DNA from: Thermoplasmata archaeon
Lineage (GTDB): Archaea > Thermoplasmatota > SW-10-69-26 > JACQPN01 > JAJPHT01
Assembly: GCA_034667685.1 (NCBI GenBank)
Contig: JAXDQU010000089.1
Span: forward strand, 1-64,000
Reading direction: 5' to 3'
DNA length: 64,000 nt
Positions 3,886 to 34,559 of this stretch are shown in pieces. Below the pieces are notes generated by a model. It saw only the letters and a list, made by a program, of their open reading frames with translations, was not told where the DNA came from and searched no databases. Made by a program: the position numbers and the translations under genes. Every line of letters begins with the position of its first letter. Within the stretch, counting starts at the first letter, position 1.

Positions 3886-4065
3886 GGGGATGAGCCTCCG
3901 AGCGAAGCCGGCCACGCGGTCCGACGAGATATAATTGATTCAAAAATTGGGGAAACGGACAGGCCTTCCCTAGAGCCGCGCTTGACCATCGCAGTCACCC
4001 CCGGCCGTGGTGACATGCGTCGAAGATTGCGGAAGACTGATGGGACCCGCCCGGGTTGACGTCGC

Positions 4066-4350
4066 GTGGCCGACCTCGGAGCGCCCGTCGCCATCGCCGC
4101 CATCGTCGCGACACTCTGCGCGCTGCTCGCCGTCGCCTCGTGGCGCGCGCTGGTGCGCACCGGCAACCGCGGCATCTACTGGGTCGTCGCCGCGTTCTGC
4201 GTGATGGCGCTGAAGAACTTCGTCAAGGCGTTCACGCTGGGCACGACCGGCGAGACGCCCGGCGAGGAGCTCGTCTTCAGCCTGCTCGACCTCGCCACGG
4301 TGAGCCTCTTCGCGTGGCCGCTGCTGCGCCGCATGGGAGTGGGCGCCTGA
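4066..4350 (+). CDS. Small 3-TM membrane protein, partner of the downstream wHTH regulator
   Basis: Three hydrophobic segments; TGATG overlap with the next gene. Confidence 0.75.
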   Translation: MADLGAPVAIAAIVATLCALLAVASWRALVRTGNRGIYWVVAAFCVMALKNFVKAFTLGTTGETPGEELVFSLLDLATVSLFAWPLLRRMGVGA

Positions 4351-4862
4351 TGCCGGTCCGCGGCGAGATCCTGGCCTTCGTCGAGCGCTACCCCGGCGTC
4401 CACGCGCGCGAGGTCGAGCGCCAGATGGGCCTTTCCGACCGGCTCGCGGGCTATCACCTGGAGGCCCTGGCCGCGGACGGGGCGCTCGCGCGCGTCGAGG
4501 ACGCGGGCTACGTCCGCTACTTCCCCACCGAGACGAGCCGTCGCCTCTCGGCGCGCGACCTGGCCTTCGTCTGCCTCCTGCGCCGTCCCCCCGCGCTCCA
4601 GATCACGCTGCTGCTCCTGGCGAACCGCGAGCTGACGCCCGGCGCCATCGCCGACGAGCTCGCCCTCGCGCGCCCCTCCGTGAGCTATCATCTGAAGGAC
4701 CTCGCGGAGCACGACGTGGTCACGGCGCGCCGCGAGGGACGCGAGCGACGCTACGCGCTGCGCGACCCGGCCTACGCGCGCCGCATGCTCGCCTCGTTCC
4801 ACCCGCTGCCGGGCGACCTCGACGCCTTCTCGCGCCTCTGGGACGACCTGGTGGGGCGCTGA
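4350..4862 (+). CDS. Double winged-helix transcriptional regulator (ArsR/MarR-like)
   Basis: RGEILAFVERYPGVHAREVER...YHLEAL and a second HTH LTPGAIADELALARPSVSYHLKDL. Confidence 0.88.
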   Translation: MPVRGEILAFVERYPGVHAREVERQMGLSDRLAGYHLEALAADGALARVEDAGYVRYFPTETSRRLSARDLAFVCLLRRPPALQITLLLLANRELTPGAIADELALARPSVSYHLKDLAEHDVVTARREGRERRYALRDPAYARRMLASFHPLPGDLDAFSRLWDDLVGR

Positions 4863-4918
4863 GCCTGGAAACGCGGCGCATCGGAAGCTTATGCCCCCCG
4901 GTGCTGATCCGCGCTCGC

Positions 4919-5122
4919 ATGCGAGCCACCCTTCTCGTCGCCGCCGCCCTGCTCTCCCTCGCCGTGCTGACCGCCCTGCCGGCCGCGAGCGCCGACTGCA
5001 ACGTCCAGGGCCCCGTGATCGTCTGCCAGCAGTGGGCGCCGCTGCCGCGCGACATGGGCTGGTACCAGCAGACCTGCGTCTACACGCAGCTCTCGCCTGC
5101 GGGCGTCTGCGTTCTTCCCTAG
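4919..5122 (+). CDS. Small secreted 4-Cys peptide, 67 aa
   Basis: Signal peptide ending ASA, then DCNVQG...C...C...CVLP; CTTATG TATA-like box about 30 nt upstream. Confidence 0.7.
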   Translation: MRATLLVAAALLSLAVLTALPAASADCNVQGPVIVCQQWAPLPRDMGWYQQTCVYTQLSPAGVCVLP

Positions 5123-8694: not shown

Positions 8695-8744
8695 GGCGGG
8701 GGGTCTCTGGCATCCCCACCTAAAGCCAGCGGAAAGTCCGACGC

Positions 8745-8963
8745 CTACTGCCACTCGCAGCGGATCTCGCCGGTGTCGGGATAGTACCAGCAGACGATGC
8801 AGTTGCCCACGCGCGGGGGCAGGCCGGGGCAATTGGAGCTGGGCGTGCCGCACTCGCCGATGAGCTGCTCGACGGTGCAGAGCGAGGGGGGCGTTGCCGC
8901 GGCGATGCCCGTCGCGAAGAAGCCGGTCACCAGCATGGCGGAGATCAGGAGCATGGTCTTCAT
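8745..8963 (-). CDS. Secreted 6-Cys peptide, 72 aa (array member 5)
   Basis: Signal peptide + TPPSLC...CG.P...C...CIVCW...IRCEWQ. Confidence 0.8.
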   Translation of the reverse strand: MKTMLLISAMLVTGFFATGIAAATPPSLCTVEQLIGECGTPSSNCPGLPPRVGNCIVCWYYPDTGEIRCEWQ

Positions 8964-8996
8964 GCAAAAGAGGGGAGCGCGCCCCGCGGCTCACGC

Positions 8997-9016
8997 TTTG
9001 GGGCGCAAACGCTTTC
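8997..9016 (-). promoter_or_regulatory. Conserved 20-bp upstream motif, copy 1 (GAAAGCGTTTGCGCCCCAAA)
   Basis: 3' end lies 34 nt upstream of the ATG at 8963. Confidence 0.75.
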
Positions 9017-9017
9017 C

Positions 9018-9239
9018 TCAGTGCCACGTGCAGTGGAGGCTCGTCGGGTCGCCCTGCTCGGTCCAGCACTGGAAGCAGCTGTTGTCGGAGACGCACTGGG
9101 GCGTGGGGATGCCGCAGCCGCCGTTCTGGAAGCAGAAGTCGTTGGGGTCGGGAGGGAAGCCCGGGGGTGTGGCCGACGCCGCGCCCACGAGCAGGAGTCC
9201 GGTGGCGAGCAGTCCGAGGACGAGCATGGTGGATTTCAT
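9018..9239 (-). CDS. Secreted 6-Cys peptide, 73 aa (array member 4)
   Basis: MKSTMLVLGLL...ASA + TPPGFPPDPNDFC...CG.P...C...CFQCW...LHCTWH; paralogous to 8745-8963. Confidence 0.8.
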   Translation of the reverse strand: MKSTMLVLGLLATGLLLVGAASATPPGFPPDPNDFCFQNGGCGIPTPQCVSDNSCFQCWTEQGDPTSLHCTWH

Positions 9240-9272
9240 GCGCGGCTCGGAACGCCACGCTCCGGCTCCTGG

Positions 9273-9292
9273 TTTGGGGCGCAACGGCTTTC
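9273..9292 (-). promoter_or_regulatory. Conserved 20-bp upstream motif, copy 2 (GAAAGCCGTTGCGCCCCAAA)
   Basis: 3' end lies 34 nt upstream of the ATG at 9239. Confidence 0.75.
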
Positions 9293-9294
9293 GC

Positions 9295-9483
9295 TCAATC
9301 GCGGCAGGTGGGACCGTACGGGCCGAGGCTGCACAGGCCGAAGCAGTGCACGGGGTCCGTGATCGAGGTGCCCGTGCCGAAGAACTTGCAGACCTGGTTC
9401 GGGTCGGGCGGACCGGCGGCGGCGACGGGGGCGACGGACACGAAGAGCGCGAGCGAGACGAGGACGAGGAGGGCAGCCTTCAT
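9295..9483 (-). CDS. Secreted 4-Cys peptide, 62 aa (array member 3)
   Basis: Signal peptide + GPPDPNQVC...; GGAGGT RBS upstream. Confidence 0.78.
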   Translation of the reverse strand: MKAALLVLVSLALFVSVAPVAAAGPPDPNQVCKFFGTGTSITDPVHCFGLCSLGPYGPTCRD

Positions 9484-9487
9484 CGGC

Positions 9488-9790
9488 TTACCTCCACGTG
9501 ATGGCCTGGCACTCGATCTGCCCGTTGCTGTCGCGCCAGCACTTCGGCGGGATCGGCGAGGGCGTGGGCACGTGGCAGCCCCGCGGGCCGAAGATGGCGT
9601 GGCAGGGGTCGGTGACGATCGGGTTGCCCAGGACGCCGTGGACGAGGTCGAGCACCGGCTGCACGACGCTGCCCGGGCTGGGCGGGTCGACGCAGTAGCC
9701 GGTGTCAGGGTCGCAGATGGGCGTGGCGGACGCGAGCGGGCCCAGCGCGACCAGCGCGAGGGCGGCGAGGACGAGGAGCGAGAGCTTCAT
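9488..9790 (-). CDS. Secreted 6-Cys peptide, 100 aa (array member 2)
   Basis: MKLSLLVLAALAL...ASA + TPIC...CWRDSNGQIEC...WR; GAGGTG RBS. Confidence 0.8.
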   Translation of the reverse strand: MKLSLLVLAALALVALGPLASATPICDPDTGYCVDPPSPGSVVQPVLDLVHGVLGNPIVTDPCHAIFGPRGCHVPTPSPIPPKCWRDSNGQIECQAITWR

Positions 9791-9800
9791 CGGCGCCACC

Positions 9801-10007
9801 TCAGTTGCCGCACGGGGGCTCGTGGTGGAGGCAGCCCTGCACGAGGGCGAGGACCTGGTCCTCGACGCCGCCGACCACGCCGCCCTCGTCGGGCACGCGG
9901 TAGCAGAGGTTGGGCTTCGGGCAGATGACGTGGTCGTCGGCGCTGGCCGTGATGGAGGTCGCGAGCGGCACCGCGAGGAGCAGCGCCACGATCAGGAAAG
10001 CCTTCAT
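9801..10007 (-). CDS. Secreted 4-Cys peptide, 68 aa (array member 1)
   Basis: MKAFLIVALLLAVPLATSITASA + DDHVICPKPNLC... Confidence 0.78.
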   Translation of the reverse strand: MKAFLIVALLLAVPLATSITASADDHVICPKPNLCYRVPDEGGVVGGVEDQVLALVQGCLHHEPPCGN

Positions 10008-10040
10008 GCGCGCCGCAGGACGCGGCGTCGGCCATTCCCC

Positions 10041-10060
10041 TTTGGGGTGCAACGGCTTTC
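10041..10060 (-). promoter_or_regulatory. Conserved 20-bp upstream motif, copy 3 (GAAAGCCGTTGCACCCCAAA)
   Basis: 3' end lies 34 nt upstream of the ATG at 10007. Confidence 0.75.
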
Positions 10061-10066
10061 CCCCAT

Positions 10067-10220
10067 GCGAGGGCCCGAGGGCGAGTTTCCGCCCGGTGTC
10101 GTTTGCCGGCGCTCCCTTCCCGACACCGCGCATCCGAGTCATCCGCGGATTGCGGGATTCGCGGTGTTGGGAAGGGAGCGTCACCAAGACAGCCATCGGG
10201 TGGGAACGCTCCCTCGCCCC
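10067..10220. repeat. Dispersed palindromic element (family G), copy 1
   Basis: Core TTCCCGACACCGCGCATCCGAGTCATCCGCGGATTGCGGGATTCGCGGTGTTGGGAAGGGAGCG nearly matches 53147-53210. Confidence 0.75.
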
Positions 10221-10256
10221 GTCACGTTGAAGGTGCGGCCCGCTTCACGCCTGCGC

Positions 10257-11231
10257 GTGGACGAGCTGCTCCGGCCCCTGAGGATCGGGAACGTGCAGCT
10301 TCCCAACAACCTCGTCCTCTCGCCCATGGCGGGCTTCTCGGACCTGCCGTTCCGCGTGCTCTGCCGCGAGCACGGCGCCGGCCTCGTGTGCAGCGAGATG
10401 GTGAGCGCCACGTCCGTCCTGCGCGAGGTGCCGCACACGATGGCCCGGATGCGCACGCTGGAGAAGGAGATGCCCATGAGCATCCAGCTCTTCGGCACCG
10501 ACCCCGAGGCGGTGCGCGACGCGGCGGCCGACCTGGACGCGCGTTGCGCGATCGTCGGCTTCAACATGGGCTGCCCCGCGCACCAGATCCAGCGCCAGGG
10601 GTGCGGCGCCGCGATGCTCGACACGCCGGAGCTGGCGCTGCGCATGGTCGAGGCCGTGCGCGAGGGCACCTCCAAGCCGCTGCTCGTGAAGGTGCGGCTG
10701 GGCAACCGCGAGCGCCGCGACACGGTCGCCTTCGCCCGCGCGCTGGAGTCGGCGGGCGCGGCCGGGCTCATCGTGCACGGACGGATCGCCGCGCAGGGCT
10801 ACTCGGGCCGCAGCGACTGGGACGAGATCGCGCGCGTCAAGGCCGCCGTCTCCATCCCCGTCATCGGCAACGGCGACGTCACCGACGGCCCCAGCGCCCA
10901 GCGCGCGCTGCGCACCGGCGTCGACGGTCTCGCCGTCGGGCGCGCCAGCCTGGGCAACCCGCGCGTGTTCCGCGAGGTCGCGCACTACCTCGCCACCGGC
11001 GAGCGCCTCGCGCCGGCGAGCGCGGAGGAACGCTATCACGACTTCCTGCGCTACCTGGAGATGGCGCAGGCCGTGGGCATCGAGGCGACGCAGGTGCGCG
11101 AGCAGGCGCAGCAGTTCACGCGCGGCCTGCGCGGCGGGGCCGACCTGCGGCGCGCGTTCACCGGCTCCGTGGCCCTGGACGAGGTGCGGCGACGCTTTGC
11201 GCAATTTGCGGGCGGACCCCCGGCTGGCTGA
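10257..11231 (+). CDS. dus: tRNA-dihydrouridine synthase
   Basis: LSPMAGFSDLPFR, SEMVS, IQLFG, NMGCP, KVRLG, VHGR, IPVIGNGDV, VGR. Confidence 0.93.
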   Translation: MDELLRPLRIGNVQLPNNLVLSPMAGFSDLPFRVLCREHGAGLVCSEMVSATSVLREVPHTMARMRTLEKEMPMSIQLFGTDPEAVRDAAADLDARCAIVGFNMGCPAHQIQRQGCGAAMLDTPELALRMVEAVREGTSKPLLVKVRLGNRERRDTVAFARALESAGAAGLIVHGRIAAQGYSGRSDWDEIARVKAAVSIPVIGNGDVTDGPSAQRALRTGVDGLAVGRASLGNPRVFREVAHYLATGERLAPASAEERYHDFLRYLEMAQAVGIEATQVREQAQQFTRGLRGGADLRRAFTGSVALDEVRRRFAQFAGGPPAG

Positions 11232-11282: not shown

Positions 11283-11744
11283 CTACAACGGGGGCGGTAG
11301 CTGTTGTGAACCTTCCAGGCAGGGGAAGGGGGGATTGCAGTCGCTCGGTTGAACTTGGCCGCCTCCGGGGGTGTCGCACACGCCATCGTTGTTCTCATCG
11401 TCGCAGGTCTCGGTCCATTCACAGTGATCGTTTGTATCACAAGTGCATGTAGCGACCTCGCCGTCAGTGTCCCCAGGCTTGCATGACCCGGTGTAGCACT
11501 CAGTCTCGCAGCCAGCTTCTTGATGGCAGACGACGGTGTCCGACCAGTAGCATCTGGTGCAGTTTTCTTGCCAGCCGGGCCCAGGGCAACTGGTACAGTA
11601 GCCTGAATAGCCATCTGAGTGGCAGGTATCGGCGACGGCTGGTGGCAGCATGATCGTTGCAACTGAAGCAACCACAAGGGCAGCAAGGGAAAGAGTGCAC
11701 GCGCGCGAGCGTGTGGGCAGGGTTTTCGGGCGGCCGACGAACAT
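11283..11744 (-). CDS. Secreted Cys-rich protein (16 Cys in the mature part), lower GC than the flanks
   Basis: Hydrophobic leader followed by dense Cys/Asp/Thr; many A/T-ending codons. Confidence 0.65.
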   Translation of the reverse strand: MFVGRPKTLPTRSRACTLSLAALVVASVATIMLPPAVADTCHSDGYSGYCTSCPGPGWQENCTRCYWSDTVVCHQEAGCETECYTGSCKPGDTDGEVATCTCDTNDHCEWTETCDDENNDGVCDTPGGGQVQPSDCNPPFPCLEGSQQLPPPL

Positions 11745-28818: not shown

Positions 28819-29022
28819 TCAGCAGCCGCCGTGGTCGATGACGTAGCGGACGGAGGCGTAGCCGCCGCCGTTGCAGGGAATCCAGGCGTTGTCGAGCTGG
28901 CAGTTCACGGACCAGGTCGGGTTGCCGGTGTTGAAGCAGTCGATCGCCGAGGCGCCCGGCGCGAGCACGACGGCGGCCGAGCCGAGCAGGAGCGCGGCGA
29001 GCACGAGGGTGGTTGTCTTCAT
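28819..29022 (-). CDS. Small secreted 4-Cys peptide, 67 aa
   Basis: MKTTTLVLAALLLG...ASA + IDCFNTG...GGC; AGGAG RBS. Confidence 0.75.
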   Translation of the reverse strand: MKTTTLVLAALLLGSAAVVLAPGASAIDCFNTGNPTWSVNCQLDNAWIPCNGGGYASVRYVIDHGGC

Positions 29023-29424: not shown

Positions 29425-29543
29425 GCGGACGGCAGGCGCGCGGCACGCCATAAGCGCTCCGGAGCCCCGCGGACGAAGCGCAAAGGGTTGGGCCAGAAAG
29501 CTGTTGAGGCGGCCGGCGCGTGCCCCGCTTGCGAGGCGAGGAG

Positions 29544-31097
29544 GTGCGACAGGCCCCGTGGCTGGCCATCGCGCTGCTGCTGGTCGTGCCGACCGCGGCG
29601 GCGTCGGTGGAGCGCGTGACGTGGACGACCAGCGCGCCGCTCGCGTGGCAAGGCGCCACCGGCGTCGAGGTCCACGGCGGCGTGCTCGCAATCGAGGACC
29701 CGCGCGCGAGCGGCGCGTGGACGTTCGACCTGGGCCGCGGCACGATCGTCGTGAGCACCTGGCGCGTCGCGCGCGTCGAGGCGCCCTCCGGCCTGGGCTC
29801 GTATGGACCGCCGATGGACGACGCCTCGCTGGAGACCTACGAGGTCAACGCGACGCGCCTCGTCGTGCGCCTGGACGACGAGCCGATGAACTTCTCCCTG
29901 GCGTCCGGCCCGGGCGGCGAGGTGCGGCTGGAGGGCGCGGCCGACGCGGCGGGCCGGCCCGTGGCGCTCGCGCGGGACCACGCGCGCTACGCCGCGAGCG
30001 AGGATATCATCGAGGGCGCGAGCCCGATGCGGCCGCCGCCCGACTACGGGTGGACGTGGCGCCAGGGCTGGCTCTTCTGCGGCCATTGGTCCGACGGGAT
30101 CGGCGGCGGGTTCCCCGCGCTCGACGCGCCCACCGCGCACGCCAGCGGCCCCGCGAAGGTGAAGCTCATCGGCGGCGTCGCCACCTTCCTGGACGCGCAG
30201 GGCCGCGAGCAGACCATCGTCCTGGGCGAGCACGCCGATCCATCCGCGCCCGGCACGCCAGCGGCCCACGAGGCCGTCGACAAGCGCCTCTTCTTCGAGG
30301 GCGAGGTCCGCGCCGCCACGCTCTCGCCCTCGGGGCAGTGGGGGGTCGCGGGGCCGGCGACGTCGTGGGGCCTCGCGGGGGCGCTGACGACCACGCACGC
30401 CACGGGCGAGTACGCCGACGGCGCGGGCACGCACGCGTTCCGCGACGCGCCGATCACGGTCGAAGGGAGCTTCTCGCTCGCGCCCACGCAGGCCGGCGGG
30501 ACGGCGCTCCTCGCGCCCTGGACGTACGCCGCCTCCGGTGATATCACGGCGCTCGACGTCGACGGCGTGGCCGTGGGCGAGCCCGCCCTGCCCGCCGCGG
30601 CGCCGGCGCGCGTGGCCGAGGCGACGATCGCGGGCGCGCTGCTGCTCCTCGCGGCGGTCGCGCTCTACACGCGCCTGGCGCCCAGCGACCTCCTGCGCCA
30701 CGCGGGTCGCAGCCGGCTCTACGCCGAGGTGGCGCGCGAGCCGGGCATCCACCTGCGCGAGGCGGCGCGGCGCGCGGGCCTCTCGTGGAGCCCGTTGCGC
30801 TTCCACGTCGCGATGCTGCGCCGCGCGGGCATCCTGCGCCTCGAGCGCCACGGCGGGCACACGCTCCTCTATCCCGCCAGCGCGCCGGCCCAGACGCCCG
30901 CGCCCGTGCTGCACCCCGTCGCGCAACGGATCCTGGCCGCGCTTCCCGAGGCGGGCGCGTGGATCGACGCGCCCACGCTCCAGGGGAAGGTCGGCGTCTC
31001 GCGCCAGCTCCTGAGCTACCACGTGGAGCGGCTGGCGGCGGAGGGGCATGTGCAGCGGCTCCCCGGCCGGCCGACGCTGGTGGCGCGGCGCCCCTGA
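29544..31097 (+). CDS. Membrane-anchored transcription factor: signal peptide, large extracellular domain, TM, double wHTH
   Basis: LLRHAGRSRLYAEVAREPGIHLREAAR...FHVAML and a second HTH VSRQLLSYHVERL. Confidence 0.8.
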   Translation: MRQAPWLAIALLLVVPTAAASVERVTWTTSAPLAWQGATGVEVHGGVLAIEDPRASGAWTFDLGRGTIVVSTWRVARVEAPSGLGSYGPPMDDASLETYEVNATRLVVRLDDEPMNFSLASGPGGEVRLEGAADAAGRPVALARDHARYAASEDIIEGASPMRPPPDYGWTWRQGWLFCGHWSDGIGGGFPALDAPTAHASGPAKVKLIGGVATFLDAQGREQTIVLGEHADPSAPGTPAAHEAVDKRLFFEGEVRAATLSPSGQWGVAGPATSWGLAGALTTTHATGEYADGAGTHAFRDAPITVEGSFSLAPTQAGGTALLAPWTYAASGDITALDVDGVAVGEPALPAAAPARVAEATIAGALLLLAAVALYTRLAPSDLLRHAGRSRLYAEVAREPGIHLREAARRAGLSWSPLRFHVAMLRRAGILRLERHGGHTLLYPASAPAQTPAPVLHPVAQRILAALPEAGAWIDAPTLQGKVGVSRQLLSYHVERLAAEGHVQRLPGRPTLVARRP

Positions 31098-31841: not shown

Positions 31842-32681
31842 ATGCGGAGTCAGGTCATGGTCGGCGCGGCGCTGGCGCTCGCCGTCCTTCTCCCGGCCGT
31901 CGCGGTCGCCACCGACCCGACCAGCGCGATCGCAGCGGTCCAGCAGAACCTCCCTTCGCAGACGCCCCAGGCCGTGAAGGACGGCCTCGCGGCCGCGCAG
32001 AACGCCGCCGGCCCCGTCGCCGGCAACCCCGCGCCCCTGCCCAACGTGGACGCCCCCCTGGGCGCCATCGGCGCCGGGCTTCCCACCTTCGCCGTCGCCG
32101 GCCTCGCCGTCGCCGGCCTCGCGGCGCTCACGGGCGCCTTCTTCATGGGCGGCGCGCGCTTCGTGACCCCGGCCGAGGTGCTGGAGAACGACGTCCGCGC
32201 GGGCATCTACACCTACCTCAAGCAGAGCGTCGGCGCCAACCTGAAGCAGGTCACCGACGAGCTGCGCCTCACCACGACCAACGCCATCTGGCACCTCCGC
32301 AAGCTGGAGGAGGCCGGCCTGATCCACTCGCGCCGCTTCAACGGCTACAAGGTCTTCTATCCCGCCGAGGGCGGGGTCGAGGCGCGCCGCCTCTCGCTGG
32401 GCAAGACCGCCCTGGCCAACGCCAACGCCCAGGAGGTCTTCGAGCACGTGGTCGCGCACCCCGGCACGCACCAGCGCGAGATCGCGCGGGCCCTGGGCGT
32501 CAACCACGGCACCGTCCGCTGGCACCTCAAGAAGCTCATGGACGCGGAGCTCATCGTCGAGACGCGCAAGGGCAAGGCCAGCGCGTACGAGCCCACCGCC
32601 ATGGGCATGCAGGCGCTGCGCTCCGTGCAGGGCGTGCCCGCCCCCACCGCGCCTGCGGTCGAGGCGGGGTTCGCGGCGTAA
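31842..32681 (+). CDS. Membrane-anchored double-wHTH regulator, paralog 1
   Basis: Signal peptide, short linker, TM, VLENDVR...WHLRKLEE, HPGTHQREIARALGVNHGTVRWHL. Confidence 0.88.
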   Translation: MRSQVMVGAALALAVLLPAVAVATDPTSAIAAVQQNLPSQTPQAVKDGLAAAQNAAGPVAGNPAPLPNVDAPLGAIGAGLPTFAVAGLAVAGLAALTGAFFMGGARFVTPAEVLENDVRAGIYTYLKQSVGANLKQVTDELRLTTTNAIWHLRKLEEAGLIHSRRFNGYKVFYPAEGGVEARRLSLGKTALANANAQEVFEHVVAHPGTHQREIARALGVNHGTVRWHLKKLMDAELIVETRKGKASAYEPTAMGMQALRSVQGVPAPTAPAVEAGFAA

Positions 32682-32683
32682 GG

Positions 32684-32807
32684 CCCCGTCTCCCCCTCTT
32701 CCCTTCTTCCCCTCTTCCCTCGCATTCCCCTCTTCCCCCAGCGTAGCCCAGGCTGGGAAGAGGGGAATGCGAGGGAAGAGGGGAAGAAGGGAAGAGGGGG
32801 AGACGGG
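32684..32807. repeat. Near-perfect ~124-bp purine/pyrimidine palindrome (family A)
   Basis: CCCGTCTCCCCCTCTTCCCTTCTTCCCCTCTTCCCTCGCATTCCCCTCTTCCC...GGGAAGAGGGGAATGCGAGGGAAGAGGGGAAGAAGGGAAGAGGGGGAGACGGG. Confidence 0.85.
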
Positions 32808-32875
32808 CGACCGGCCCACCGCCCCTCTCCAGCCCCATAAATAGGGCTTGTTTTCCAAGCATGAGGGGAGCCCCC

Positions 32876-33655
32876 ATGCGTACCGTCTGGACCCTCGCGG
32901 CCCTTTTCACGCTTCTCGCCGTCCCGCTGGCGCTCGCCGCCGGCGTCGGGCTTCCCGGCCAGACCCAGGCGCCCACGACGCCCGTCGCGGCGCCCAGCGT
33001 CCCCTCCACGGGCGGGCTCTTCCCGAACCTCGACGTCACGACCGTCGTGGCCATCGGCGCCGGCGTCGCCTTCGTGGCGGCCGTCGCGACGATGTTCTTC
33101 CTGGGCGGCGCCAAGTTCGTCAACAGCGGCAACGTCCTGGAGAACGACGCGCGCCGCCAGATCTTCGAGTACATCCAGCAGCACCCGGGCATCCACCTGC
33201 GCGCTGCGGCCACGCAACTGAGCCTCAGCACGACCAACGTGCTCTGGCACCTGCGCAAGCTGGAGGACGCGAACCTCGTCACGTCCAAGAAGTTCGAGGG
33301 GTACAAGGTGTTCTACCCCGTCGAGGGCGGCGTCGAGACCAAGCGCCGCGCCATCGCCGCCTCCGTGCTCAAGAACGAGAACGCCGTCGCGATCCTGGAG
33401 TACGTCACCGCGCACCCCAGCGCGCACCAGCGCGAGATCGCCCGCGCCATGGGCGTCAACCACGGCACGGTCCGCTGGCACCTCCGCAAGCTGGAGGAGG
33501 CCGAGCTCGTCATGCCCATGAAGCGCGAGCACACGACCCATTACTACGTCTCCGAGCTGGGCCACACGGCGCTCTCGGGCTTCGGCTCGGCAGCAACCGT
33601 CTCGCCCGCGCCCGCGGCGCCGCCCGCGGCCAAGATCCCGGGCGACGAGCCGTGA
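32876..33655 (+). CDS. Membrane-anchored double-wHTH regulator, paralog 2
   Basis: Same architecture; shares GYKVFYP.EGGVE and QREIARA.GVNHGTVRWHL. Confidence 0.88.
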   Translation: MRTVWTLAALFTLLAVPLALAAGVGLPGQTQAPTTPVAAPSVPSTGGLFPNLDVTTVVAIGAGVAFVAAVATMFFLGGAKFVNSGNVLENDARRQIFEYIQQHPGIHLRAAATQLSLSTTNVLWHLRKLEDANLVTSKKFEGYKVFYPVEGGVETKRRAIAASVLKNENAVAILEYVTAHPSAHQREIARAMGVNHGTVRWHLRKLEEAELVMPMKREHTTHYYVSELGHTALSGFGSAATVSPAPAAPPAAKIPGDEP

Positions 33656-33785: not shown

Positions 33786-34097
33786 ATGAACAAGATGTAC
33801 ACCGTTCTCCTGGCTCTCGCGGCCTTCGCGCTGCTCGTGCCCGCCCAGGCCACCGCGCCCTGCTACACGACCTCGACGCCCCAGGCGACCGTCCCCGACG
33901 CGACCGGCCAGGTCGGCGGCGACCTGTACGTGGTCAACGACCTCTGCCAGCCCGTCGTGGGCGACGGCAGCTGCATCTACAGCATCTGGGTCTACGAGGA
34001 GTCCAACGGCATCTCCGGTCTCCAGCGCGGCGACGAGGTCCAGAACGACGTCGCCAACTGCACCGACGGCACCGCCGCGGACACGGACATCTTCTGA
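33786..34097 (+). CDS. Secreted 103-aa protein, tandem copy 1
   Basis: Signal peptide, GGAGG RBS, WVYEESNGISGLQRGD motif, 4 Cys. Confidence 0.85.
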   Translation: MNKMYTVLLALAAFALLVPAQATAPCYTTSTPQATVPDATGQVGGDLYVVNDLCQPVVGDGSCIYSIWVYEESNGISGLQRGDEVQNDVANCTDGTAADTDIF

Positions 34098-34247: not shown

Positions 34248-34559
34248 ATGAACAAAATGTACACCGTTCTCCTGGCGCTTGCCGCGGTCGCCCTGCTCGT
34301 CCCGGCCCAGGCCACCGCCCCGTGCTACACGACCTCGACGCCCCAGGCGACCGTCCCCGACGCGACCGGCCAGGTCGGCGGCGACATCTACGTCGTGAAC
34401 GACCTCTGCCAGCCCGTCGTGGGCGACGGCAGCTGCATCCAGTCCGACTGGATCTACGAGGAGTCCAACGGCCTCGCCGGTCTCCAGCGCGGCGACGAAG
34501 TCCAGAACGACGTCGCCAACTGCACCGACGGCACCACGGCCGACACGGACATCTTCTAA
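34248..34559 (+). CDS. Secreted 103-aa protein, tandem copy 2
   Basis: Differs from copy 1 at 8 of 103 residues by my count; GGAGG RBS. Confidence 0.85.
   Translation: MNKMYTVLLALAAVALLVPAQATAPCYTTSTPQATVPDATGQVGGDIYVVNDLCQPVVGDGSCIQSDWIYEESNGLAGLQRGDEVQNDVANCTDGTTADTDIF

Follow-up and report, generated by a model that had tools for sequence, protein, structure and literature searches.

Analysis of a 64,000-nucleotide (nt) stretch of DNA from a Thermoplasmata archaeon (positions 1 to 64,000 of contig JAXDQU010000089.1 in assembly GCA_034667685.1; hereafter the window) has uncovered a 20-bp sequence element, which we call the box, that stands a fixed and short distance ahead of genes for small secreted cysteine-containing peptides. 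The window belongs to contig C89 of a genome assembly of 3.48 Mb (71% G+C, 99% complete), and across that genome the box, with the consensus GAAAGCnnTTGCrCCCCAAA, is present at seven sites. All seven copies are oriented toward a downstream open reading frame (ORF) that begins with a signal peptide; six of these ORFs encode cysteine peptides of 66-82 amino acids (aa), and the seventh target is a transmembrane regulator encoded on contig C122. The box is most likely a switch site that turns a species-specific set of genes on together. On balance, we favor the view that it is a composite promoter element, in which a 13-bp factor-binding site is fused to a consensus B recognition element (BRE), and that it defines a small species-specific regulon whose TATA-poor promoters are probably leaderless.

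Three copies of the box lie on the minus strand of the window, where a first-pass annotation of this DNA had placed them. The earlier statement that each copy ends 34 nt before an ATG corresponds to exactly 33 intervening nucleotides followed by the ATG in all three cases (A at 10007, 9239 and 8963), and the GCATG start context that it reported is indeed found at all three starts. These copies are listed below with their scores from a position weight matrix (PWM) built from the seven genomic boxes, together with the spacers that follow them.

Positions 10041..10060, minus strand: box copy 1, GAAAGCCGTTGCACCCCAAA, 34.7 bits, followed by 33 nt and then the ATG of peptide gene 1.
Positions 9273..9292, minus strand: box copy 2, GAAAGCCGTTGCGCCCCAAA, 33.1 bits, followed by 33 nt and then the ATG of gene 4.
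Positions 8997..9016, minus strand: box copy 3, GAAAGCGTTTGCGCCCCAAA, 33.4 bits, followed by 33 nt and then the ATG of gene 5.
Positions 10008..10040, 9240-9272 and 8964-8996, minus strand: variable 33-nt spacers that contain a degenerate TATA slot, with A or T at the sixth base after the box (~-28).

These are the only copies in the window when up to three mismatches are allowed, and the number expected there is 0.02 as judged from 100 dinucleotide shuffles, none of which contained three or more copies. Copy 1 is located in the divergent intergenic region toward dus, while copies 2 and 3 begin 2 nt past the stop codon of gene 3 and 1 nt past that of gene 4, respectively. As read from the sequence, the box is asymmetric except for a small TTG-N5-CAA symmetry.

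The genes served by these copies belong to an array of five that code for proteins of 62-100 aa, each with a Sec-type signal peptide.

Positions 9801..10007, minus strand: peptide gene 1, 68 aa, signal peptide, 4 Cys in the mature part, GCATG start without a Shine-Dalgarno (SD) sequence.
Positions 9488..9790, minus strand: peptide gene 2, 100 aa, signal peptide, 6 Cys, no box, SD sequence GAGGTGG at 9802-9796.
Positions 9295..9483, minus strand: peptide gene 3, 62 aa, signal peptide, 4 Cys, no box, SD sequence GGAGGT at 9495-9490.
Positions 9018..9239, minus strand: peptide gene 4, 73 aa, signal peptide, 6 Cys, box copy 2 upstream.
Positions 8745..8963, minus strand: peptide gene 5, 72 aa, signal peptide, 6 Cys, box copy 3 upstream.

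The two genes that lack a box start 10 and 4 nt past the preceding stop codon and have close SD sites, as the annotation had described, and its suggestion that they are co-transcribed is a reasonable one; genes 2 and 3 are probably read together with gene 1 as one operon. Genes 4 and 5 are distant and old paralogues (30% identity, E 5e-9), and the other peptides of the box set look unrelated to one another. A Pfam search returned a family match for none of the eight peptides of the set, and in a search of 5.8 billion proteins gene 5 was an orphan except for one 96%-identical sequence.

A scan of the whole genome with the degenerate box pattern at up to two mismatches yielded seven sites, and a reversed-pattern control yielded none. 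Allowing three substitutions added two poor matches only, neither of which has a matching context. The box class is discrete, because the seven boxes score 29.5-35 bits with the PWM while the next best sequence scores 17.7 bits (29 matches reach at least 12 bits). The four sites beyond those of the array, found by the genome scan and the PWM, are as follows.

C122:37311-37292, minus strand: box upstream of the transmembrane regulator gene.
C2:28262, plus strand: box upstream of a secreted peptide gene.
C60:1599, plus strand: box upstream of a secreted peptide gene.
C79:93219, plus strand: box upstream of a secreted peptide gene.

The C2, C60 and C79 boxes precede signal-peptide peptides with four Cys each, which measure 82, 66 and 67 aa across the three sites and have their ATG at +31, +33 and +33, respectively. 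Consequently, the ATG stands at +33 in five of the box genes and at +31 in one. Counted by promoter, the seven boxes serve a three-gene operon and five single genes for small secreted cysteine peptides, eight of these peptides in all, and the gene of one transmembrane regulator. The element thus forms a small promoter-proximal set with strict orientation and spacing, all of it before signal-peptide ORFs, rather than the scatter of sites lacking positional bias that the annotation had named as the outcome that would speak against a regulon.

The conservation of these loci is confined to the box. Mean pairwise identity over the seven loci is 0.82 for the box and falls to 0.31 for the upstream 40 nt, 0.38 for the spacer and 0.38 for the first 69 coding nt, with sharp edges at box positions 1 and 20. 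The values for the flank, the spacer and the start of the coding region are background for a genome of this composition, and the divergence of spacers that had been noted in the window copies therefore extends to the whole set. Recent duplication, which had been raised as another way in which the repeated motif could arise, fails to explain the box, because identity in the flanks and coding starts is no higher than background, genes 4 and 5 are only 30% identical and the other peptides look unrelated.

The position of the box is best understood against the ordinary promoters of this genome. The genome is archaeal, with two genes for the TATA-binding protein (TBP) and three for transcription factor B (TFB), and TATA boxes of the TTCAAATA type are present upstream of 48 tRNA genes, often with CCCrAAA before them. 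Ahead of protein start codons, AT-rich hexamers peak at -32 to -28, with a frequency of ~4-5% versus ~1% elsewhere. This indicates that many mRNAs of this genome are leaderless, since the AT-rich TATA boxes are centered near -28 of start codons. An alignment of 628 TATA-bearing upstream regions is enriched for A at -35/-34 and for T or A at -30 to -26, and a 16-bp promoter PWM trained on these regions by expectation maximization reads gCCgAAA-SS-TTtAW, starts at -38 to -41 in 473 of the 628 and gives a training median of 8.2 bits.

When the box is laid onto this register it spans -53 to -34 of the start codon in five of the six peptide genes and -51 to -32 in the remaining one. Its last seven bases, CCCCAAA (-40 to -34), fall on the BRE segment of the promoter PWM, with the register at -40 in the five genes and at -38 in the one. 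This heptamer resembles the BRE of strong tRNA promoters, and a CCCCAAA(A)-N2-4-TATA layout also occurs in promoters of regulator paralogues in related genomes. Ordinary promoters have nothing equivalent to the first 13 bases of the box, GAAAGCnnTTGCr (-53 to -41), and the 628 regions carry no information at those positions. Downstream of the BRE part the TATA slot is degenerate, with best promoter PWM scores of -6.7 to +1.8 in six of the seven promoters compared with a median of -3.8 for shuffled upstream sequences. The exception is the C122 promoter, which has a usable TATA, ACCCCAAAGGTTTTCG, of 6.4 bits downstream of the box. The sixth base after the box (~-28) is A or T in all seven promoters and aligns with PWM position 12, which is among the two most informative positions and never has G or C. 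The absence of a TATA box that had been reported for the window copies thus holds up, as these promoters score -4.8, -6.7 and -3.2 against the training median of 8.2 bits and thus do no better than shuffled sequences. The accompanying description of the motif as a "non-TATA" alternative to the BRE/TATA pair holds for the degenerate TATA slot but not for the box as a whole, since CCCCAAA occupies the canonical BRE position. The GG..TTGC look of the sequence also recalls a bacterial sigma-54 (-24/-12) promoter; this candidate was rejected, as the GG to GC spacing is 9 nt versus GG-N10-GC and copy 2 lacks the GG, and a search of the genome with the Sigma54_DBD profile returned no match.

The mechanism that we infer for these promoters, from the transcription start and the binding of a factor to the sign of regulation and the identity of that factor, would run as follows. 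The 5' 13 bp of the box (-53 to -41) would be bound by a sequence-specific transcription factor just beyond the reach of TBP and TFB, and the bound factor would help load TFB and TBP onto promoters that are poor in TATA. Transcription would then start at the ATG or 1-2 nt from it, and the fixed distance of 33 nt between box and ATG would follow because transcription starts at or near the ATG. The candidate factor is the C122 transmembrane regulator, which may also act on its own promoter.

A different use of the same site would be as a repressor operator, with a factor that occupies all 20 bp, BRE included, blocks TFB and TBP and keeps the peptide and regulator genes silent until its release. 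BRE/TATA occlusion is a common mode of repression in archaea, the conserved block takes in the BRE position itself, and the usable TATA of the C122 promoter is what would be expected where repression is needed. Nevertheless, we consider this reading unlikely, given that six of the seven promoters have no recognizable TATA and would be weak even when unrepressed, and that the most invariant part of the block continues for 13 bp beyond the upstream edge of the BRE, into the region of activator sites.

The register also bears on whether the box might act in RNA, as a processing, stability or translation signal within a 5' leader or an intercistronic transcript. A fixed distance to the ATG would suit such a role, as would the location of copies 2 and 3, which start so close to the preceding stop codons, with no obvious terminator, that read-through RNA would include them. 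Yet there is no conserved fold, the consensus structure having 2 pairs at -0.22 kcal/mol with no compensatory change, and no Rfam match over the boxes at E <=1. Furthermore, the box on C2 is not intercistronic, because its upstream neighbor is on the opposite strand in a crude ORF map, and the geometry of the set fits a BRE register in DNA. We regard an RNA-level role as highly improbable.

The annotation had left open two ways of reading the motif, as a fixed-spacing activator site or as an alternative core promoter recognized by an alternative TFB or TBP. The first of these is the one favored here, while the second finds weak support in the general factors themselves. The two TBP genes of this genome are arranged in tandem:

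C8:82749-83273 and 83301-83822: tandem TBP genes 27 nt apart, the second starting with TTG.

Four genomes of the same genus (G001-G004) were used for comparison, and each has a single TBP. A core promoter read by the second TBP or by one of the three TFBs, without a separate regulator, would account for the coincidence of a species-specific second TBP with a species-specific box, and it would agree with the presence of three TFB genes and with the location of the 3' end of the box at the BRE position. Set against this, the second TBP gives no sign of a diverged DNA-reading surface. In the alignment of TBP2 with TBP1, 162 of 178 residues agree. Eight of the 16 substitutions recur in the only TBP of G002, a protein that has to recognize ordinary TATA boxes, so that nothing suggests a new DNA specificity for TBP2. 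Three TFB genes are likewise present in each of G001-G003, all of which lack the box. The BRE-like part is the canonical consensus and not a new one, the TATA slot is degenerate where a new conserved sequence would be expected, and the 13-bp part lies upstream of the usual contact zone of TFB and TBP. An alternative core promoter is therefore, in our estimation, improbable. TBP1 is identical at 178 of 178 residues to the TBP of G003 and of G004. In G003, ~30 nt of the TBP 3' end are repeated after the single TBP gene, which hints that this genome may have lost a second copy.

The search for the factor that would bind the 13-bp site leads to the seventh target.

C122:37268-35712, minus strand: transmembrane regulator, 518 aa, with the box at C122:37311-37292 upstream.

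This protein is predicted to have a signal peptide, a ~310-aa outside domain, one hydrophobic helix (~aa 340-374) and a cytoplasmic double winged helix. Residues 383-440 match HTH_24 (E 2.8e-10) and HVO_0163_N (E 1.9e-8), a second and weaker MarR/ArsR-like winged helix-turn-helix (wHTH) lies at aa 468-492, and ArsR/MarR structures match both halves of the cytoplasmic part. For the outside domain no known family was found, and the ESM Atlas gave no usable match. The available text of PMC10269533 defines a transmembrane transcription regulator (TTR) as a DNA-binding domain and a membrane helix in one protein, and the C122 protein combines both. A regulator gene that carries the site of its own regulon is the usual mark of autoregulation, and for this reason the C122 regulator is inferred to be the best candidate for the box-binding factor, one that may control its own expression.

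The C122 regulator belongs to a greatly expanded type. Matches to winged helices of the HVO_0163 type occur at 56 places in the genome, of which 40 are over the cut-off, and many of these regulators are in ORFs of 500-1100 aa with a signal peptide and a membrane helix. Thirty-six places match the C122 regulator itself at E <=1e-5, many through the winged-helix part only, compared with an archaeal mean of 4 TTRs per genome as given in the available text of PMC10269533. HVO_0163-type regulator genes in the window are found at 29520-31097(+), 32187-33559(+) and 4056-4862(+). Two possible signs of a broader link between this family and the peptides were tried and discarded. The half-site GAAAGYnnTYG has 45 genomic matches, mostly in coding sequence, so that the copy upstream of a regulator paralogue in the window (29496) is not significant. 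A string similar to it upstream of a paralogue in G003 is the BRE/TATA of that promoter. Also, 10 of 40 HVO_0163-type genes lie less than 2 kb from peptide genes versus a random mean of 4.3, but four of these ten belong to one locus and the excess was not relied on.

The box and its genes appear to be restricted to this species. At up to two mismatches the box is found in none of the four congeners, and all four lack the peptide block at the syntenic site.

Positions 8741..10258: peptide block (~1.5 kb) with five peptide genes, three boxes and a long hairpin, lying between DUF63, Maf and membrane protein genes on one side and dus on the other.

The distance between the flanks of this block is ~50 nt in G003 and G002 and 550 nt in G001, and G004 has 1.8 kb of unrelated DNA between them. 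A tblastn search of the four congeners with the five window peptides produced nothing better than E 0.02. The C122 regulator gene and its box form a ~2-kb insertion between genes that are adjacent in the congeners, where the closest match to the regulator is a 36%-identical paralogue, and the C2, C60 and C79 units are absent or replaced in all four. In a wider set of 40 relatives, the box at up to two mismatches gave 9 matches versus 7 for the reversed control, and none precedes a secreted ORF. Larger collections, which may leave out records of the source genome or of near ones, were equally devoid of the regulon: anchoring the box to an ATG in JGI metagenome contigs gave 2 matches, both in unrelated low-GC contigs; IMG/VR gave 1 chance match; and species-representative genomes gave 35 single matches in 35 records, all with bacterial titles and close to a rough chance estimate, with no archaeal match and no genome holding two boxes. 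Among the genomes and collections searched, the regulon is thus species-specific, a restriction that fits a fast-evolving pair of regulator and site.

Several features at or near these sites were observed alongside. The C2 box and its peptide gene are in a variable islet between conserved genes (C2:28118-28560, 350 bp) that is replaced by a different 4.8-kb insert in G003 (C45:27947-32728) and by 150 bp in G002. The hairpin of the window block is a long GC-rich inverted repeat at 10108-10180 with ~22-bp arms, between the peptide array and dus and inside the species-specific insertion, for which Rfam gave weak miRNA-precursor-like matches only. Just past dus, at 11283-11744(-), there is a 153-aa cysteine-rich ORF with a signal-peptide-like N-terminus.

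This pattern of presence and absence raises the question of whether the box is a relic of cassette movement, either a recombination or insertion site or a passenger of gene duplication. Relative to the four congeners, each of the five loci is an insertion or a replacement, and the tandem small ORFs recall cassette arrays. Against a cassette origin, the units have no common element at their 3' ends and no inverted repeat partner, and their flanks, spacers and coding starts are at background identity, with most peptides unrelated and genes 4 and 5 sharing 30%. Strict orientation and a strict distance to the start codon are moreover unexpected for an attachment site, and we give this explanation very little weight.

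A number of observations weigh against the composite promoter element and the role assigned to the C122 regulator. A poor TATA is not special to box genes, as 90 small-peptide genes that have neither box nor SD sequence score a median of -2.5 bits, with 22% reaching at least 5 bits (Mann-Whitney p = 0.31), and it is thus not demonstrated that the box compensates for a weak TATA. A C at -1 was tried as a mark of leaderless genes and is non-discriminating, with a frequency of 0.64 in leaderless versus 0.58 in SD-led genes. Two spacers contain SD-like runs, GGGGAGG at C60 and GGTGGGG at C2, that would fit a leadered mRNA, and a second register, with GAAA as BRE, TTG in the TATA slot and a ~17-nt leader, is formally possible and scores ~0 bits. 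A factor that covered the whole 20 bp would mask the BRE, which would result in repression and not activation. The evidence for conservation of the box all comes from one genome, with no cross-species footprint. With regard to the regulator, its gene has no ATG or GTG at the expected distance, only TTG at +14 and +23. An in-frame GCATC at +38 after the box (C122:37230-37292) mirrors the GCATG at +33 of the peptide genes and may mark a start codon of an unusual kind or a start that has decayed. Finally, the link between regulator and box comes from one promoter, and chance association is not negligible given ~40-56 places with the same type of helix-turn-helix.

The composite promoter element has clear parallels among known archaeal systems. 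Ptr2 of Methanocaldococcus, TFB-RF1 of Pyrococcus and GvpE of Halobacterium are activators that work from an upstream activating sequence (UAS). According to the available text of PMC7408454, archaeal activators bind such a UAS beside the core promoter and guide TBP or TFB. The box resembles these sites in being a sequence-specific cis element that is shared by several promoters at a fixed position directly upstream of the BRE/TATA. A closer comparison is provided by the membrane-bound regulators ArnR and ArnR1 of Sulfolobus acidocaldarius, for which the available text of PMC6396743 describes bench-tested binding to boxes within -43 to -84 of pflaB. The membrane-bound C122 regulator can be likened to ArnR, as a candidate binder only. 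The ArnR boxes are inverted repeats, TCGAC-N5-GTCGA, whereas the box described here is asymmetric, single and fused directly to an invariant consensus BRE that is followed by a degenerate TATA. Like most TTRs (ToxR, CadC and TcpP, as well as ArnR and ArnR1) the C122 regulator is single-pass, but its topology is unlike that of the TTRs just named, as the outside domain comes first and the DNA-binding domain, a tandem HVO_0163/ArsR/MarR winged helix, comes last.

In haloarchaea, promoter choice is made by multiple TBP and TFB paralogues. The present genome is similar in having more than one TBP and TFB gene and a subset of promoters with an unusual core sequence; it differs in that the extra TBP is no more diverged than orthologues are within the genus and in that the BRE-like part is canonical. 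The box is most likely to be a further UAS-type promoter element of archaea, and its link to a membrane sensor is attractive but unproven. Our literature searches brought up, for cysteine-rich secreted proteins of Thermoplasmata, fungal and plant work only among the matches listed, and, for HVO_0163, one unrelated proteomics paper.

The peptides that carry the box are a small part of a much larger repertoire. A crude filter (ATG start, signal-peptide-like N-terminus, 40-130 aa, at least two Cys and third-codon-position G+C above 0.85) selects 116 candidate small secreted cysteine peptides genome-wide, many of them in tandem arrays; examples in the window are 4919-5122(+), 28819-29022(-), 33786-34097(+) and 34248-34559(+). 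The box is directly upstream of 6 of the 116, and 2 more are operon partners. A second class of upstream box, roughly TGG(C/A)AAC(C/G)-N-GCG-N-CTA, is found at ~-55 to -38 in 6-8 peptide promoters. One example in the window is in 4860-4918, upstream of the peptide at 4919-5122(+) and beside the double-wHTH gene at 4056-4862(+), and others are on contigs C113, C11, C54, C81 and C10. The sequence GCAACC is present in 11 of the 116 peptide upstream regions versus 27 of 1968 other genes. Recurrent boxes were looked for within the 116-gene set, since all-against-all BLAST of unmasked DNA and a broad set of signal-peptide ORFs were both swamped by GC-rich chance similarity. This second class suggests that there are several parallel pairs of box and regulator.

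One extension of these results, which we offer as a long shot, is that the seven promoters would make up a strain-specific and self-contained circuit of peptide signaling. The regulator would use its outside domain to detect at least one of the secreted cysteine peptides and, through the box, switch on both the peptides and itself. If true, this would amount to a quorum-sensing-like or kin-recognition loop in an archaeon, and the expanded regulator family together with the ~116 candidate peptide genes suggests that dozens of such circuits would run in parallel.

Knowledge of gene regulation in uncultured soil archaea is very limited, and there are very few archaeal regulons for which a cis element has been defined and its position relative to the core promoter is known. 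The box set provides a bench-ready case of this kind, with seven sites that share one orientation and one spacing and combine a consensus BRE with almost no TATA, and with a candidate membrane regulator that has the site in front of its own gene. Should that regulator sense the peptides, then peptide signaling in archaea would be opened to experiment. As the set is absent from sister species, it may represent a snapshot of a new secreted-protein regulon in the course of being assembled or acquired.

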